Positions 10,728-21,027 of a stretch of 64,000 nt of DNA are shown piece after piece. The translations under genes and the position numbers were made by a program. Source of the stretch: Candidatus Poribacteria bacterium (lineage in GTDB: Bacteria > Poribacteria > WGA-4E > JAJDTR01); contig CBDBEE010000003.1 in assembly GCA_965204085.1 (NCBI GenBank), positions 387,240 to 451,239 on the forward strand. Direction: 5' to 3'. How positions within the stretch are numbered: position 1 is the first letter of the stretch; each line of letters begins with the position of its first letter. The notes under the pieces are model-generated. The model made no database searches. It was given only the letters and a program-made list of their open reading frames with translations, and was not told the origin of the DNA.

Positions 10728-13208
10728 CTAAAACGCATTCTCCCATCCGATATAATACAACCCGCCGTTGAAACCGAAAGGCGCCGACCGCCGCGAGTAG
10801 GTGAATACCCCCGGCGAATCAACAATAATGTTGCCCCACGCATCCACGATCTTCCCGCCGCGTGATTGACCGACACGATTCTCATCCGGCGTCACATTGA
10901 ACAAGTTATTCGCGCCAATCTTAATCCTGCCGTATTCGCCCAATCCGTAGCTGATTTGAACGTCGGTGAGGTACTTCGGCGTGAAGGTTTGCCTCTTACC
11001 GCCGTCAATCACCGTGTATTCCCCGTATCGATGGACTGCGTAGTCCACGGCGAGAGCGTCGCCTGTGTATCGGGTTGACATCGAGACGCGGTCTTTCGGT
11101 TGCCACGATTCAACGATAGAGCGGTCCTGCTCCGTGAACAGCGATTCGGGGAGATTGGCGGGCAGATTCACATCGGTGATCTCCGTTTCCGTGTAGTTCG
11201 CAGCGAAACTAAACGCGAGTGAGGCGCTATCCAACAAGGGATAGGTATACAACGCTACAAAATCAATTCCCTGTGTTTCGGTGTCTGCCGCGTTCATGAA
11301 GAATTGCGCCCCTGCCACACCTGAATCTGCGAGACTCGCTCGAATTCCTGCTGGAATCGCTTCATTGCCGCTCGACAGCCGTCCACTGATGATGATGCGG
11401 TCGCTGATCGTAGCCCGGTAAAAGTCCGTTGTAAGCGTCAACCGGGGCAGCGGGCGCAGGATGAATCCGCCGCTCAGGTTAACCGCAGTCTCCTCCGTCA
11501 ACTCGGGAATCCCGACGGCTTTCGCAATGTCGCTATCGTTTCGGAACGTGCCGATTTCTTGTGCCACTGACTGCCCGTCAACTGTATTAAATTGTGTGCT
11601 TACGTTGTTGAAATACAGTTGCTGCATGGAGGGCGCGCGAAATCCGGTGCTAGCCGAACCCCGAAGTGCGAGCGCGTCTGCCGGTTCATAGCGCAGCGCC
11701 AACTTTCCGTTTATCGTGGAACCGAAGTCGCTGTAGTTCTCGACGCGTGCCGCCGGATTGACGAACACCGATTCGATGGGATTTACCTCCACATCGGTAT
11801 AAAACGCAAAAGCGGTACGCAGTTCGTTTACCTCATTTGACGGCTGGAATCCGGGGAACACTTGAATACCGCCCGAGGCGCCTCCGGGACCGTCATAATC
11901 GTTATACGAAACCTCCTCGCCCGCGGTAATCTGATAGATGTCGTTCCGAAATCCGCCGCCGACCGCAACGTTGCCCCAGTCCATCGGCAGCGAGAAATCC
12001 AGGTCCACCGTGTTAAGGAAGAGTCGCAAATCCCCCGCATCCGCGGACGATGGACTCGAACCCTCTGCGGCGACAAGCGATGCGTTGTGCGAATTGCTGA
12101 CGTTGAACGCAAAGCTGTTGCCGCCCGTGACGACGCTCGCATCCATCCGCAAATCATTCCCGAACTTCTGCTTGACACCAACACCAATAGAGTAATCCAG
12201 TACACTTGTATTGATTAACGGAAGGAACCCGTCGGGGTAGTCCGAACCTTCAGGGTTGCGACTGAGTTGATTCGCCCTCCGGTAAAATCCCGCACTGGTG
12301 TTCTGCCGATTTGAGTAATCGAGGAAACTGTAGAAAGTGGCGCCCTCCCAAATGTTGTCAATCGGCTTGTCCAAATTCAGAACAACGGCGCCCTGACGCG
12401 ATTCCGCATCGCCGATACGGAAATTCTGGCGGTCAAAGCTATGTTCTTTGTTGCCGGCGTCGTTCGTAATCTGGACGGGAGCGCCATCCCCAACTTCAGT
12501 ATCGGGATACTGAATCACGCCCGTCATACCCGCGCGGTTGGTTGGCTGCCTATCTCGATACTCAATCGCGCCGTGAATCGTACCGTCATTGCCGAATTTG
12601 AACCCTTTATGCGCATTCAACGCGAACGTCTCGCCATCTCCCTCGTACGTCGAGCCGTAGGAGGTGCCAAACGCCCCATCGTAATCATCCTTGAGTACGA
12701 GATTTATGACCCCCGCCAGCGCATCCGAACCGTATTGAGCCGAAGCGCCATCCCGCAGAATCTCGATCCGTTTAATCGCGCTCGCGGGTATCGCGTTCAT
12801 GTCTACTCCTGCCGTGCCTCGACCGACTGAAGTATTCACGTGAATTAACGCACTCCCGTGACGCCGCTTCCCGTTGACGAGCACGAGCACCTGATCCGGA
12901 CCTAAACCCCGAAGCGTCGCGGGTCGTAGCGCATCCGTACCGTCGCTGATTGATGAACTTGAAAAATTGAACGATGGCGCCAACGTCTGTAACACACGTC
13001 CGATTTCGGTATGCCCCGTCTTTCGGATGGCGTCCTCGTTGATCACATCGACCGGCACCGGCGAATCCAATCGACTCCGCTCCGGCACACGAGTACCAAT
13101 CGTGACAATCTCCTCAAGTTCGATTGGGGTTGCCGCTTCCTCCTCCTGTGCGGTGAGTGATGAAGCAGACAATACTATTATGGTTGAAAGTAAAACGAGA
13201 ATCTTCAA
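10728..13208 (-). CDS. TonB-dependent outer-membrane receptor (plug plus 22-strand barrel)
   Basis: TTG start at 13208 with an AGGAGG Shine-Dalgarno sequence 9 nt upstream, followed by a signal peptide. Plug-domain motifs are present (IEILRDGASAQYGSDALAGVINLVLK). The protein ends in an aromatic residue (…GWENAF). Confidence 0.85.
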   Translation of the reverse strand: MKILVLLSTIIVLSASSLTAQEEEAATPIELEEIVTIGTRVPERSRLDSPVPVDVINEDAIRKTGHTEIGRVLQTLAPSFNFSSSSISDGTDALRPATLRGLGPDQVLVLVNGKRRHGSALIHVNTSVGRGTAGVDMNAIPASAIKRIEILRDGASAQYGSDALAGVINLVLKDDYDGAFGTSYGSTYEGDGETFALNAHKGFKFGNDGTIHGAIEYRDRQPTNRAGMTGVIQYPDTEVGDGAPVQITNDAGNKEHSFDRQNFRIGDAESRQGAVVLNLDKPIDNIWEGATFYSFLDYSNRQNTSAGFYRRANQLSRNPEGSDYPDGFLPLINTSVLDYSIGVGVKQKFGNDLRMDASVVTGGNSFAFNVSNSHNASLVAAEGSSPSSADAGDLRLFLNTVDLDFSLPMDWGNVAVGGGFRNDIYQITAGEEVSYNDYDGPGGASGGIQVFPGFQPSNEVNELRTAFAFYTDVEVNPIESVFVNPAARVENYSDFGSTINGKLALRYEPADALALRGSASTGFRAPSMQQLYFNNVSTQFNTVDGQSVAQEIGTFRNDSDIAKAVGIPELTEETAVNLSGGFILRPLPRLTLTTDFYRATISDRIIISGRLSSGNEAIPAGIRASLADSGVAGAQFFMNAADTETQGIDFVALYTYPLLDSASLAFSFAANYTETEITDVNLPANLPESLFTEQDRSIVESWQPKDRVSMSTRYTGDALAVDYAVHRYGEYTVIDGGKRQTFTPKYLTDVQISYGLGEYGRIKIGANNLFNVTPDENRVGQSRGGKIVDAWGNIIVDSPGVFTYSRRSAPFGFNGGLYYIGWENAF

Positions 13209-13276
13209 GGTGGTTATTCCTCCTTTGATGTTGAAGAATTAAAGAATTGAGCAGAACTGCCGCTCTGCTCGACAGG

Positions 13277-19602: not shown

Positions 19603-19776
19603 GTCTATACACCTGCGATAGTACAAAGATATTCTGAAATGCCCAAAATTGAGACTGTTTAATATCGTCAAAGATTCTTCTAGCTGCCGACACAACAATT
19701 ACGAAGACGCAAATCGCTCAGACGCGATGAATTATTCGGGGCGAACTCGCTTCCACGCGAATCCGTCAATCCCCGA

Positions 19777-21027
19777 TCAATTTCCCTCTGCCGGTGCCAC
19801 TGATGCCGCATCTCCCTTTTCGATGATAGCCATTTGGGTCATCCGCCACGTCGGGCTCCCAGGTCCAACGTCATACCACTTTCCATCCGGCGACAACCCC
19901 ATAAAGACATAATCCTCGTCTCCCCAATCTGCGTCCATTGGTTCATTCGGTGCCCAGTTTGTGTAGCTGACAGCTTCCCTGTTCATCCAACTCCACTCGC
20001 CTTCCTTTTCCCCATCGGTTAGACCAATCCAATACGGTAAGCTCCCAAAGATGCTCACAAGCCATTTCTGCTCCGCCGCATCGTTAATTGAGACCAAATG
20101 CGCCCCTTCGCTAACCGCTTGCGCCTGAGCGCGCTCCCGGCTCTCGCAATGAATGACCTTGTAGGAGTGCCCATTTGCGGGGTTCAGCACCCACTCTCCC
20201 TCACGCTCCGGTTCCTCCCGATCGGAAGTTGGGTTGACGGGCACGGGATCGCTGTCAAGGGTAATGACCAAATCTTCACGTCGTTGGCCATCTTCGAGTG
20301 CGAACTGCTCCGAGGTTGCCGTAAGCCCTTGAAGTTCGACCGCAACCGAGTATATCGCCGGCTCATCCACATAGTGTACAAAATATCCCGCTTCGTCCGT
20401 TCGTGGAGCTCCGCCTCTGCTTCCGTAACCGTTCCCATTAAAATCCCTTCGTCGCACACTAATCTGAACTTCCGCGTTGGCAAGCGGCGTACCATCGGAA
20501 AAAACGACTTGGGCGCGAATCCGCATTCGAGGTCTTACTGTGACCTCAACATTGTCTAGGTGCGCGCCGGGTTCAATAGAAAACGTGATTGCACCGTGAG
20601 GGGGCCGTTCCTTGTTGAAACGATGAAATGTCATCACTCCGATATCAATGGAGAGAACCTCCGCATCCGGACCAACAGTGTCTAAATCAAAATCAGGTAG
20701 TAGCATCTCTTCAAAAGGCAGATGGGCGGGTTGTGCCATTAGCTGTATAGGCCCAGGTCTAATCTCCGTAATGGAAAACCAACCCTTTTCATCAGTTGTT
20801 GATTTGCGCAAAGCAGCGTATGCTTCTAACAGGTGTCCATCTTCCTCAAACATGTAGACTGGCCATACAGTATTATGAGAGATTTCCACAGACTGAACAG
20901 TCAAAGGGAATCCCGAAATCGGATTCCCCTCCACATCAATAACGCGCCCAGATAGAGTAGATGTGGATTCTTCGGCGACGCCAAGCCATGACACCACTAA
21001 CAGCAATGCGGCAATGCCAGTCGCCAT
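19777..21027 (-). CDS. secreted CarboxypepD_reg-like plus C-type-lectin-like protein, paralog of 13277..14518
   Basis: An ATG at 21027 starts MATGIAALLLVVSWLGVAEE (signal peptide). STLSGRVIDVEGNPISGF is followed by the CTLD motifs WIGLTDGEKEGEWSW...TNWAPNEP...EDYVFM...KWYDV. Confidence 0.65.
   Translation of the reverse strand: MATGIAALLLVVSWLGVAEESTSTLSGRVIDVEGNPISGFPLTVQSVEISHNTVWPVYMFEEDGHLLEAYAALRKSTTDEKGWFSITEIRPGPIQLMAQPAHLPFEEMLLPDFDLDTVGPDAEVLSIDIGVMTFHRFNKERPPHGAITFSIEPGAHLDNVEVTVRPRMRIRAQVVFSDGTPLANAEVQISVRRRDFNGNGYGSRGGAPRTDEAGYFVHYVDEPAIYSVAVELQGLTATSEQFALEDGQRREDLVITLDSDPVPVNPTSDREEPEREGEWVLNPANGHSYKVIHCESRERAQAQAVSEGAHLVSINDAAEQKWLVSIFGSLPYWIGLTDGEKEGEWSWMNREAVSYTNWAPNEPMDADWGDEDYVFMGLSPDGKWYDVGPGSPTWRMTQMAIIEKGDAASVAPAEGN

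Follow-up and report, generated by a model that had tools for sequence, protein, structure and literature searches.

CD94-NKG2 and the snake-venom C-type lectin-like alpha/beta dimers are heterodimeric proteins built from C-type-lectin-like domains (CTLDs) that bind proteins, not sugars. The CTLD superfold is also found in the C-terminal domain of intimin and invasin, pertussis toxin S2/S3, the Mtd and TvpA proteins of diversity-generating retroelements (DGRs), and FGE-sulfatase. These other bacterial and phage CTLD folds are compact or highly divergent and are not recognized by the Pfam Lectin_C model. Poribacteria, which are still without cultured members, rank among the dominant symbionts found in marine sponges. 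Here, we analyze a gene cluster of a Candidatus Poribacteria bacterium (GenBank assembly GCA_965204085.1, contig CBDBEE010000003.1) that encodes two exported, stalked CTLD proteins (CTLD-A and CTLD-B), two exported WD40 double propellers (WD40-A and WD40-B), and a TonB-dependent receptor (TBDR). It lies in a stretch of 64,000 nucleotides (nt; contig positions 387,240 to 451,239), hereafter the window, in whose numbering all positions are given.

Among systems that join a sigma factor to an external binding domain, clostridial SigI/RsgI are polysaccharide sensors. In ECF52 (e.g., Streptomyces SCO4117), an extracytoplasmic function (ECF) sigma factor carries a C-terminal transmembrane (TM) segment and an extracytoplasmic carbohydrate-binding extension (PMC5826349). 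Lectin or carboxypeptidase-regulatory ectodomains are not mentioned in the reclassification of ECF sigma factors (PMC7826278). WD40 proteins are abundant in Poribacteria, where eukaryote-like repeat proteins often have signal peptides or TM helices (Kamke et al. 2014, PMC3909097); lectin domains, pairing, arrays, and sigma fusions are not mentioned there. Our full-text literature searches returned no description of a poribacterial CTLD family, of the missing sugar site in its members, of B/A pairs and arrays, of an association with WD40 genes, or of sigma-CTLD fusions; the family, a large one, is apparently undescribed. Judged against its relatives, the locus appears to be one case of a module found so far only in Poribacteria, and we rate as about even the chance that this is an extracytoplasmic ligand-recognition or sensor module and not a classical lectin-plus-uptake system.

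Architecture and fold of the CTLD proteins

Five large co-oriented open reading frames (ORFs), all on the minus strand, occupy 10.7-21.1 kb of the window, which agrees with a first-pass annotation that had placed the four CTLD and WD40 genes on the same strand as the TBDR. The coding-strand order is CTLD-B, WD40-B, WD40-A, a 761-nt spacer, CTLD-A, and TBDR. This is a nested C-W-W-C arrangement rather than two tandem WD40+CTLD modules; the paired modules proposed at first survive as an adjacency that recurs in relatives, but not as the order seen here. Each of the five proteins is predicted to begin with one N-terminal hydrophobic export segment.

CTLD-A (13277..14518, minus strand; 413 aa, A subtype; assigned with Pfam, AlphaFold2 [AF2], and Foldseek) and CTLD-B (19777..21084, minus strand; 435 aa, B subtype; assigned with Pfam and orthologues) share 44% identity (E 8e-114). 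Both consist of a signal, two beta-sandwich stalk domains, and a long-form C-type lectin fold. In CTLD-A, the signal (residues ~1-28) is followed by a beta-sandwich (30-127), a CarboxypepD_reg domain (158-247), a Ser/Thr-rich linker (250-275), and the CTLD head (279-402, window 13313-13684); the head of CTLD-B spans ~19813-20175. Pfam detected CarboxypepD_reg (E 4.7e-13) and Lectin_C (E 5e-12) in CTLD-A and the same two domains in CTLD-B (Lectin_C E 1e-11). Scores of 46.9 and 46.0 bits against the Lectin_C model (PF00059) compare with a curated cutoff of 22.6. Together with the export segments, these matches confirm the earlier description of paralogous secreted proteins with a CarboxypepD_reg-like N-domain and a CTLD. 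The start of CTLD-B, previously set at ATG 21027 (416 aa), is revised: it is most likely GTG 21084, giving 435 aa, and ATG 21027 would be internal, because GTG 21084 has a ribosome-binding site (RBS; GGAGG 8 nt upstream), is kept in six species, and matches homologues of 435-436 aa.

The full-length AF2 model of CTLD-A was confident in the stalk domains but left the long loop unmodelled (pLDDT <50 at residues 336-372), and a domain-only model of the CTLD head (pLDDT 86.8, pTM 0.83) replaced it for fold comparison. In Foldseek, this model matched the CTLDs of CD23, SRCL, ASGR1, and aggrecan with TM scores of 0.78-0.87 and a root mean square deviation (rmsd) of ~2.5 Å, and phmmer matched the head to single-domain carbohydrate-recognition domains (CRDs) in the PDB at E ~3e-15. 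The stalk domains matched Gram-positive pilin and adhesin stalk domains. On the modelled structure, the fold of the C-terminal domain is truly that of C-type lectins rather than an FGE-like one; the non-lectin or FGE-like fold that the first-pass annotation had named as the outcome speaking against it was not seen.

The annotation had also described the CTLDs as lacking disulfide cysteines, and this holds: in the CTLD heads, the Cys after the ED motif is replaced by Phe or Tyr and the final Cys by Ile or Leu, and neither of the two structural disulfides (C1-C4 and C2-C3) is present. Family-wide statements here and below refer to 232 distinct CTLD heads taken from 69 Poribacteria loci, three metagenome loci, and the window. 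A lone Cys is conserved in 213 of these domains, and 194 have exactly one Cys.

A diversified, non-canonical ligand face

A HMMER alignment of CTLD-A with the sugar-binding CRD of cow CD23 placed EPK at the EPN motif, WSD at WND, and Phe at a conserved Cys; the corresponding motifs of CTLD-B are EPM and WYD. The EPN/WND-like motifs noted at first are thus recognizable by position, but both Asn residues are lost. The principal Ca2+ site (five ligands: EPN or QPD, Glu, and WND) is complete in neither protein, and a canonical Ca2+/sugar site was found in none of the 232 family domains, with Asn at the EPN-Asn position in a single domain and at the WND-Asn position in none. Because of this loss, the heads cannot be classified as Ca2+-dependent carbohydrate-recognition domains, and the Ca2+-sugar site predicted initially is not supported. 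Acidic residues of the auxiliary Ca2+ site, scored as the Asp of WIGLTD, the Glu of EGEW, the Asp after EPx, and the Asp of ED, are present in both CTLD-A and CTLD-B, and this site-1-like quartet is retained in 129 of the 232 domains.

Column entropy peaks in the long loop, beta3, beta4, and the next segment, which together correspond to the canonical ligand face, while the WIGL core and the beta5 strand are almost invariant across the family heads. The family therefore reads, at the level of sequence, as a CTLD scaffold with a diversified, non-canonical binding face.

A CTLD fold with a variable binding face would also suit the variable protein of a DGR or a phage receptor-binding protein, an identity that we regard as vanishingly improbable here. 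No template-repeat copy of either CTLD 3' region was found in the window, where the sole match was the paralogue (69%), and the variability lies between paralogues that are 35-60% identical overall and is not limited to a short region. Viral contigs contained no relative of the family, and PADLOC gave no defense-system membership, reporting only a generic repeat match of the WD40 proteins. With no template repeat, a DGR variable protein is effectively ruled out for the window (no exhaustive search for a reverse transcriptase was made).

A paired CTLD family in Poribacteria

A scan of one genome per prokaryotic species gave 359 stretches encoding a relative, and 69 loci were kept, onto all of which the window proteins were mapped by tblastn. 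All 69 carry Poribacteria titles except one titled "uncultured bacterium." Homologues formed 683 clusters at 90% identity for CTLD-A and at least 970 for CTLD-B, and every named homologue of either query came from Candidatus Poribacteria. Their records are named "lectin-like protein" or "carboxypeptidase regulatory-like domain-containing protein" or are hypothetical; an exact-sequence lookup of CTLD-A had no match on record. The homologue search with the CTLD head alone gave 6 matches, and an exhaustive representative search, dominated by multi-CTLD giants, was used to select ten proteins for naming. The nearest CTLDs outside the family were 46-50% identical, the two named ones coming from metagenome-assembled genomes of a Deltaproteobacterium and a member of the Synechococcales, whereas animal CRDs were 26-30% identical to the family heads. 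The combination of C-type lectin and WD40 domains had been called typically eukaryotic; with the closest outside relatives of the family being bacterial, this description is not supported, and its recent acquisition from an animal host seems unlikely.

At least 224 family genes were counted in 71 loci, in co-oriented arrays of up to 8-12 genes. Exactly two copies occur in 39 of the 71 loci, and the B-then-A order recurs. In 47 of 62 gene triplets, the next-nearest gene was more similar than the adjacent one, so the B+A pair, not the single gene, is the unit of duplication. Orientation is nearly uniform (222/224 CTLD genes and 36/36 long WD40 genes are co-oriented). The conserved pairing is that of the two CTLD subtypes, with WD40 as a frequent third component.

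Fusions of CTLD proteins to ECF sigma factors

In 22 loci, one CTLD gene is a fusion in which ECF sigma regions 2 and 4 and then one hydrophobic helix (residues 219-237) come before the CTLD part of the ORF. Pfam found Sigma70_r2, r4_2, CarboxypepD_reg, and Lectin_C in one ORF (L002 and L017, in our numbering of the loci). The fusion was recovered as a single tblastn high-scoring segment pair across residues 1-726 in several genomes, and independent gene calls of 726-727 aa exist in several assemblies. Pfam detected no zinc-finger anti-sigma domain in the fusions. A free CTLD gene comes next after the fused gene in all 22 cases, and three of the resulting pairs have a WD40 gene behind them. 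A membrane-tethered ECF sigma factor with an extracytoplasmic sensor is therefore the predicted architecture in these relatives, though not in the window. Because of the sigma-TM-ectodomain topology, the stalk-CTLD ectodomain would lie outside the cytoplasmic membrane, which indicates that it may be able to act as a sensor.

Two of the loci hold further genes of this kind. Giant proteins of 1228-1246 aa (L017:1432-5118 and L017:12128-15868; also in L018) join ECF sigma regions 2 and 4 to five or six CarboxypepD_reg domains, presumably through a TM helix. They flank the sigma-CTLD gene in both loci, and one of them ends in an AhpC/TSA-like domain, so that membrane-tethered sigma factors with large ectodomains are clustered in these Poribacteria.

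The fusions also bear on a host-directed role, in which CTLD and WD40 proteins would be released as "eukaryote-like" effectors that bind the sponge surface or matrix and serve recognition or the avoidance of phagocytosis. Such a role would fit the way of life of the phylum, the restriction of the family to Poribacteria, the abundance of WD40 proteins in the phylum (PMC3909097), the export signals, the variable ligand faces, and the further surface-type repeat proteins (leucine-rich repeat [LRR], cohesin, dockerin, and PD40) encoded in the window. In the sigma-fused relatives, however, this ectodomain would be tethered to the cytoplasmic membrane and point into the periplasm; the termini show no signal for outer-membrane sorting or secretion (C-terminal domain of type IX secretion, or lipobox); and the nearest CTLD relatives are bacterial, not animal. 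We consider release toward the host quite unlikely.

The WD40 double propellers

WD40-A (15280..17148, minus strand) and WD40-B (17722..19602, minus strand; the more diverged duplicate) are exported 14-blade double propellers. Each has 14 repeats of ~42 aa and matches PF00400 and propeller models (Pfam WD40 E 1e-98 to 1e-124). The signal peptide of WD40-B is MRILLTLLLLIVLSPLNASQ; in WD40-A, the signal peptide and a QWSLPEG motif are conserved. The two proteins are 58% identical (E 0), in line with the original identification of two paralogous secreted 14-blade proteins. Since the syntenic relatives have one WD40 gene (L009 has none), the second one in the window is a lineage-specific duplicate; the single WD40 of syntenic genomes L001, L004-L008, and L039 is 66-69% identical to WD40-A and 55-57% identical to WD40-B.

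WD40 is the fastest-evolving gene of the locus, with 69% identity to the nearest relative compared with 93-98% for the CTLDs and 93-96% for the TBDR. Between WD40-A (15280-17148) and its counterpart (L001:7666-9546), divergence runs in whole blades, with identities of 21% at 149-190 and 55-62% at 65-148 and 536-577, a pattern that suggests blade replacement or recombination. Position-specific hypervariability of the repeats, as in fungal HNWD proteins, gave no clear signal beyond this whole-blade divergence.

In 24 of the 69 loci, a WD40 gene of 600-700 aa has a CTLD gene no more than 700 nt away, with gaps down to 7 nt, so the adjacency singled out in the first-pass annotation does recur. Detection of WD40 genes used a single query. 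At this distance from CTLD genes, 31 WD40 blocks were counted; the 937 kb of flanking DNA gave 14, a background that is a rough estimate, and several of these 14 are a second WD40 behind an adjacent one. Two WD40 subtypes, both with signal peptides retained, could be distinguished: type 1 is that of the window, and type 2 sits 7-100 nt downstream of an A-type gene in many species, with independent gene calls placing the A-type stop 7 nt from the WD40 start. In several genomes (L023:15431-18302, L073:13594-16474, and L074:14541-17414), a conserved protein of ~418 aa that Pfam does not match and then a BCCT-family transporter come after a B, A, WD40-type-2 unit. ORFs of 489 aa and 417 aa that accompany arrays elsewhere had no Pfam match at E <= 1.

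These counts bear on the alternative that the cluster is no functional unit at all, but the inherited synteny of two expanded families whose WD40-CTLD-TBDR adjacency carries no meaning. We judge this improbable. In its favor, 45 of 69 loci have no WD40 gene, the second WD40 is specific to this genome, the 573- and 761-nt spacers contain repetitive extragenic palindromic (REP)-like elements, and no conserved promoter precedes CTLD-A. The excess of WD40 blocks near CTLD genes and the strict co-orientation speak against it, as do the A-type-to-WD40 gaps of 7-100 nt in many species and the recurrence of the same order after sigma-fused copies in three loci.

Regulatory context

A consensus scan gave a sigma-70-like promoter candidate 5' of CTLD-B (TTGATT, 17 nt, TAGAAT; 21156..21184, minus strand), and this candidate (21184-21156) falls within the best-conserved block of the Lhr/CTLD-B intergenic region in six species. 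A conserved promoter was also looked for 5' of CTLD-A in the syntenic species, and none was found; the RBS alone is conserved there. The 573-nt spacer between the two WD40 genes (17149..17721) has a variant REP-like palindrome at 17561-17577 and no other repeats that we could find, and the 761-nt spacer (14519..15279) contains dispersed REP-like elements, namely, a GGTGGGCAGTGCCCACC palindrome at 15119-15135 and copies of CGATAGRGATCCC. A strong terminator-like hairpin with a 12-bp stem and a T-run lies 3' of the TBDR gene (10665..10694, minus strand). An Rfam scan of 9000-22500 detected no riboswitch or RNA element at E <= 0.1. Because the region 5' of CTLD-A keeps only an RBS and the spacers carry REP-like elements, the cluster may comprise two or three transcription units.

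The repeats themselves are not confined to the locus. The 17-nt palindrome GGTGGGCAGTGCCCACC occurs in intergenic DNA at 15119-15135, 17561-17577, 36505-36521, 52181-52197, and 52259-52275 (0 expected by chance); it resembles a REP-like element of this genome, with related copies in spacers of other Poribacteria loci. The motif CGATAGRGATCCC (14791-15076, 28761, 34944, 36594-36617, 52306, 56491, 59603, and 59675) has 12 sites against ~3 expected, dispersed and in both orientations, four of them clustered in the spacer 5' of CTLD-A; it represents a second repeat family that is not locus-specific. A perfect 20-nt palindrome, GGAACGCAGATCTGCGTTCC, is present at three intergenic sites (21382-21401, 29026-29045, and 36193-36212), and its copy 5' of CTLD-B is kept in four related species. 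The repeats of the 761-nt spacer and the palindrome 5' of CTLD-B were considered as regulator sites and rejected, being dispersed REP-like elements that also occur elsewhere in the window.

The TonB-dependent receptor and local synteny

The TBDR (10728..13208, minus strand; 826 aa) lies 68 nt downstream of CTLD-A and is of a generic type. Pfam detected a plug (PF07715, E 1.4e-21) and a barrel (PF00593, E 1.2e-29) but no CarboxypepD_reg N-domain; there was no NCBIfam equivalog match, and the SusC signature TIGR04057 scored 18.6 against a cutoff of 46.2. No SusD-like gene was found among the Pfam-annotated neighbors. By these sequence signatures, the receptor is not of the SusC/RagA type of a polysaccharide utilization locus (PUL), and the argument that a CarboxypepD_reg domain shared with SusC-type transporters suggests a common surface location falls away. 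The signal takes up 21 aa and the plug begins at residue 47, too short an interval for an STN domain, and neither a sigma nor a FecR domain was found in the Pfam-scanned window proteins, so FecIRA-type signaling is not indicated. In the PDB, the likeness to siderophore and B12 receptors is limited to the plug.

Seven loci preserve the order Lhr(-) | B, WD40, A, TBDR, DsbH-like, and one more (L009) has it without WD40. These eight syntenic loci are those with an A-type protein 69-93% identical to CTLD-A; in L001, the orthologue of CTLD-B is 98% identical. Adjacency of a TBDR is limited to this closest syntenic lineage (the window and the 8 loci). In the other loci, no TBDR occurs within the ±10-kb flanks, save for three with weak matches, to the plug alone, 8-10 kb upstream. 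The connection with the TBDR drawn in the first-pass annotation is not supported, and the receptor is probably not a core component of the module. In the nearest relative, the TBDR gene (L001:11590-14051) is frameshifted at ~12417 and called as two genes, which may be a pseudogene or an assembly error. The protein encoded 3' of the TBDR (6149-8593, minus strand; 814 aa) combines a DsbH-type thioredoxin domain with six-hairpin glycosidase-like and DsbD_N domains. It is syntenic in all close relatives and could matter for exported proteins with a single cysteine.

Here the alternative of glycan capture and uptake has to be weighed, in which secreted lectins would bind host or algal glycans with the assistance of the WD40 proteins and the TBDR would import the oligosaccharide. 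It retains weight because CTLD-A lies 68 nt upstream of the TBDR, in an order kept in 8 related loci, and because the Ca2+ site is partly preserved in A-type heads; further points in its favor are the genuine CTLD fold and the conservation of the auxiliary Ca2+ site in both A and B. We nevertheless think it unlikely. The CTLDs of the window lack both Asn ligands, as do practically all of the 232 family domains; Pfam found no glycoside hydrolase, SusD, or sulfatase in the cluster; and the TBDR is generic, does not accompany the family beyond one lineage, and is frameshifted in the nearest relative.

A putative extracytoplasmic receptor module

We propose that the parts of the module are a B and an A protein, each with a short signal or anchor at the N terminus, a stalk of two beta-sandwich domains, a flexible linker, and a CTLD head poor in cysteine, and that this pair is often accompanied by one or more exported 14-blade WD40 double propellers. 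By analogy with some animal CTLD receptor pairs, B and A would act together, possibly as a heteromer; it is the likeness to CD94-NKG2 and the snake-venom dimers that leads us to this hypothesis. They would reside in the periplasm or cell envelope, as the topology of the sigma fusions requires for the ectodomain there. The ligand, presumably a protein, a peptide, or a non-canonical glycan, would not be bound through the classical Ca2+-monosaccharide mechanism, and the WD40 propellers may be binding platforms. In the fused relatives, ligand binding could be coupled to transcription; the module of the window does not appear to be coupled to a sigma factor. In this lineage, the adjacent TBDR may deliver or share the ligand.

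Several points weigh against this proposal. The loci were retrieved with A-type peptide patterns, and the A or B subtype was assigned by best tblastn score, which is ambiguous below ~45% identity. The heteromer idea is drawn from gene order alone. WD40 genes, absent from about two-thirds of the loci, are not obligatory. In A-type orthologues, site 1 is complete and the principal Ca2+ site still has its E, E, and D, so Ca2+-dependent binding of some carbohydrate may yet occur. The gap of 68 nt between A and the TBDR is conserved at ~70 nt in L004 and L005 and could reflect a real coupling to transport in this lineage. Finally, cleavage of the N-terminal segments as signals, with release of the proteins from the cell, is conceivable and would favor a host-directed role.

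A broader version of the receptor module, in which the phylum holds a specific repertoire of paired B/A receptors with diversified non-sugar faces and exported WD40 proteins, some pairs being wired to an ECF sigma factor, is possible but, in our estimation, doubtful. The annotation of these genes changes in any case, to an animal-type CTLD fold without the sugar-binding residues, duplicated as B/A pairs and in some cases fused to sigma factors. If functional, the sigma-CTLD fusions would be a kind of sensor not yet listed for ECF regulation. If the paired-receptor reading is true, the family would represent a previously unrecognized class of bacterial extracytoplasmic receptor and signal-transduction system, with a logic convergent with that of the heterodimeric CTLD receptors of animal immune cells, and one that possibly reads host- or community-derived cues inside sponges.

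Other genes of the window

Beyond the cluster, six tandem paralogous genes of 319-337 aa (29240-36093, minus strand) form a second propeller array; the three that were scanned with Pfam are PD40-type beta-propellers. Two large proteins (45544-49722, minus strand, and 53910-55937, plus strand) combine LRR, cohesin, and dockerin domains, the second also with a GHL15-like domain, a combination that suggests surface assembly. An ORF of 2558 aa (36792-44468, minus strand) has LysM, M28 peptidase, and FtsX-like permease matches and is for the most part without a Pfam match at E <= 1e-5.

Comparison with known systems

As in SusC/SusD PULs and FecIRA, an outer-membrane TBDR adjoins genes for exported binding-domain proteins, and the wider family has a link to ECF sigma factors. 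Unlike in those systems, the receptor has neither the SusC N-extension nor space for an STN domain, SusD, FecR, and glycoside hydrolases are missing, and the adjacency is seen in one lineage only. With other bacterial and phage CTLD-fold proteins, the poribacterial heads share the use of the fold as an extracytoplasmic binding domain and, in the case of the DGR proteins, as a variable scaffold. They differ in that they exceed the Lectin_C cutoff, superpose on animal long-form CRDs, and have no DGR.

The animal long-form CTLDs (CD23/FcεRII, SRCL/collectin placenta 1, ASGR1, mannose-binding protein, and mannose receptor) have the same fold at 26-30% identity (E ~1e-15), and the poribacterial heads share with them the WIGL motif, a long loop region, and the auxiliary-site acidic residues. 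The stalk-plus-head layout, possibly with an N-terminal membrane anchor, recalls type II CTLD receptors. In contrast to the animal domains, the poribacterial heads lack the structural disulfides and both Asn residues of EPN/WND, and the proteins are bacterial and exported, with a transthyretin- or pilin-like beta-sandwich stalk, and are encoded as alternating paralogue pairs in arrays.

Paired paralogous CTLDs, the loss of the sugar-binding Ca2+ site, and diversified loops are features in common with CD94-NKG2 and the snake-venom dimers; here, though, it is only the alternation in gene order and one lone conserved Cys that point to pairing. Like ECF52 and SigI/RsgI, the sigma-fused relatives of CTLD-B couple an extracytoplasmic binding module to a sigma factor in one polypeptide. 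Unlike in ECF52, the sensor is a CTLD, and a free CTLD partner gene always follows.

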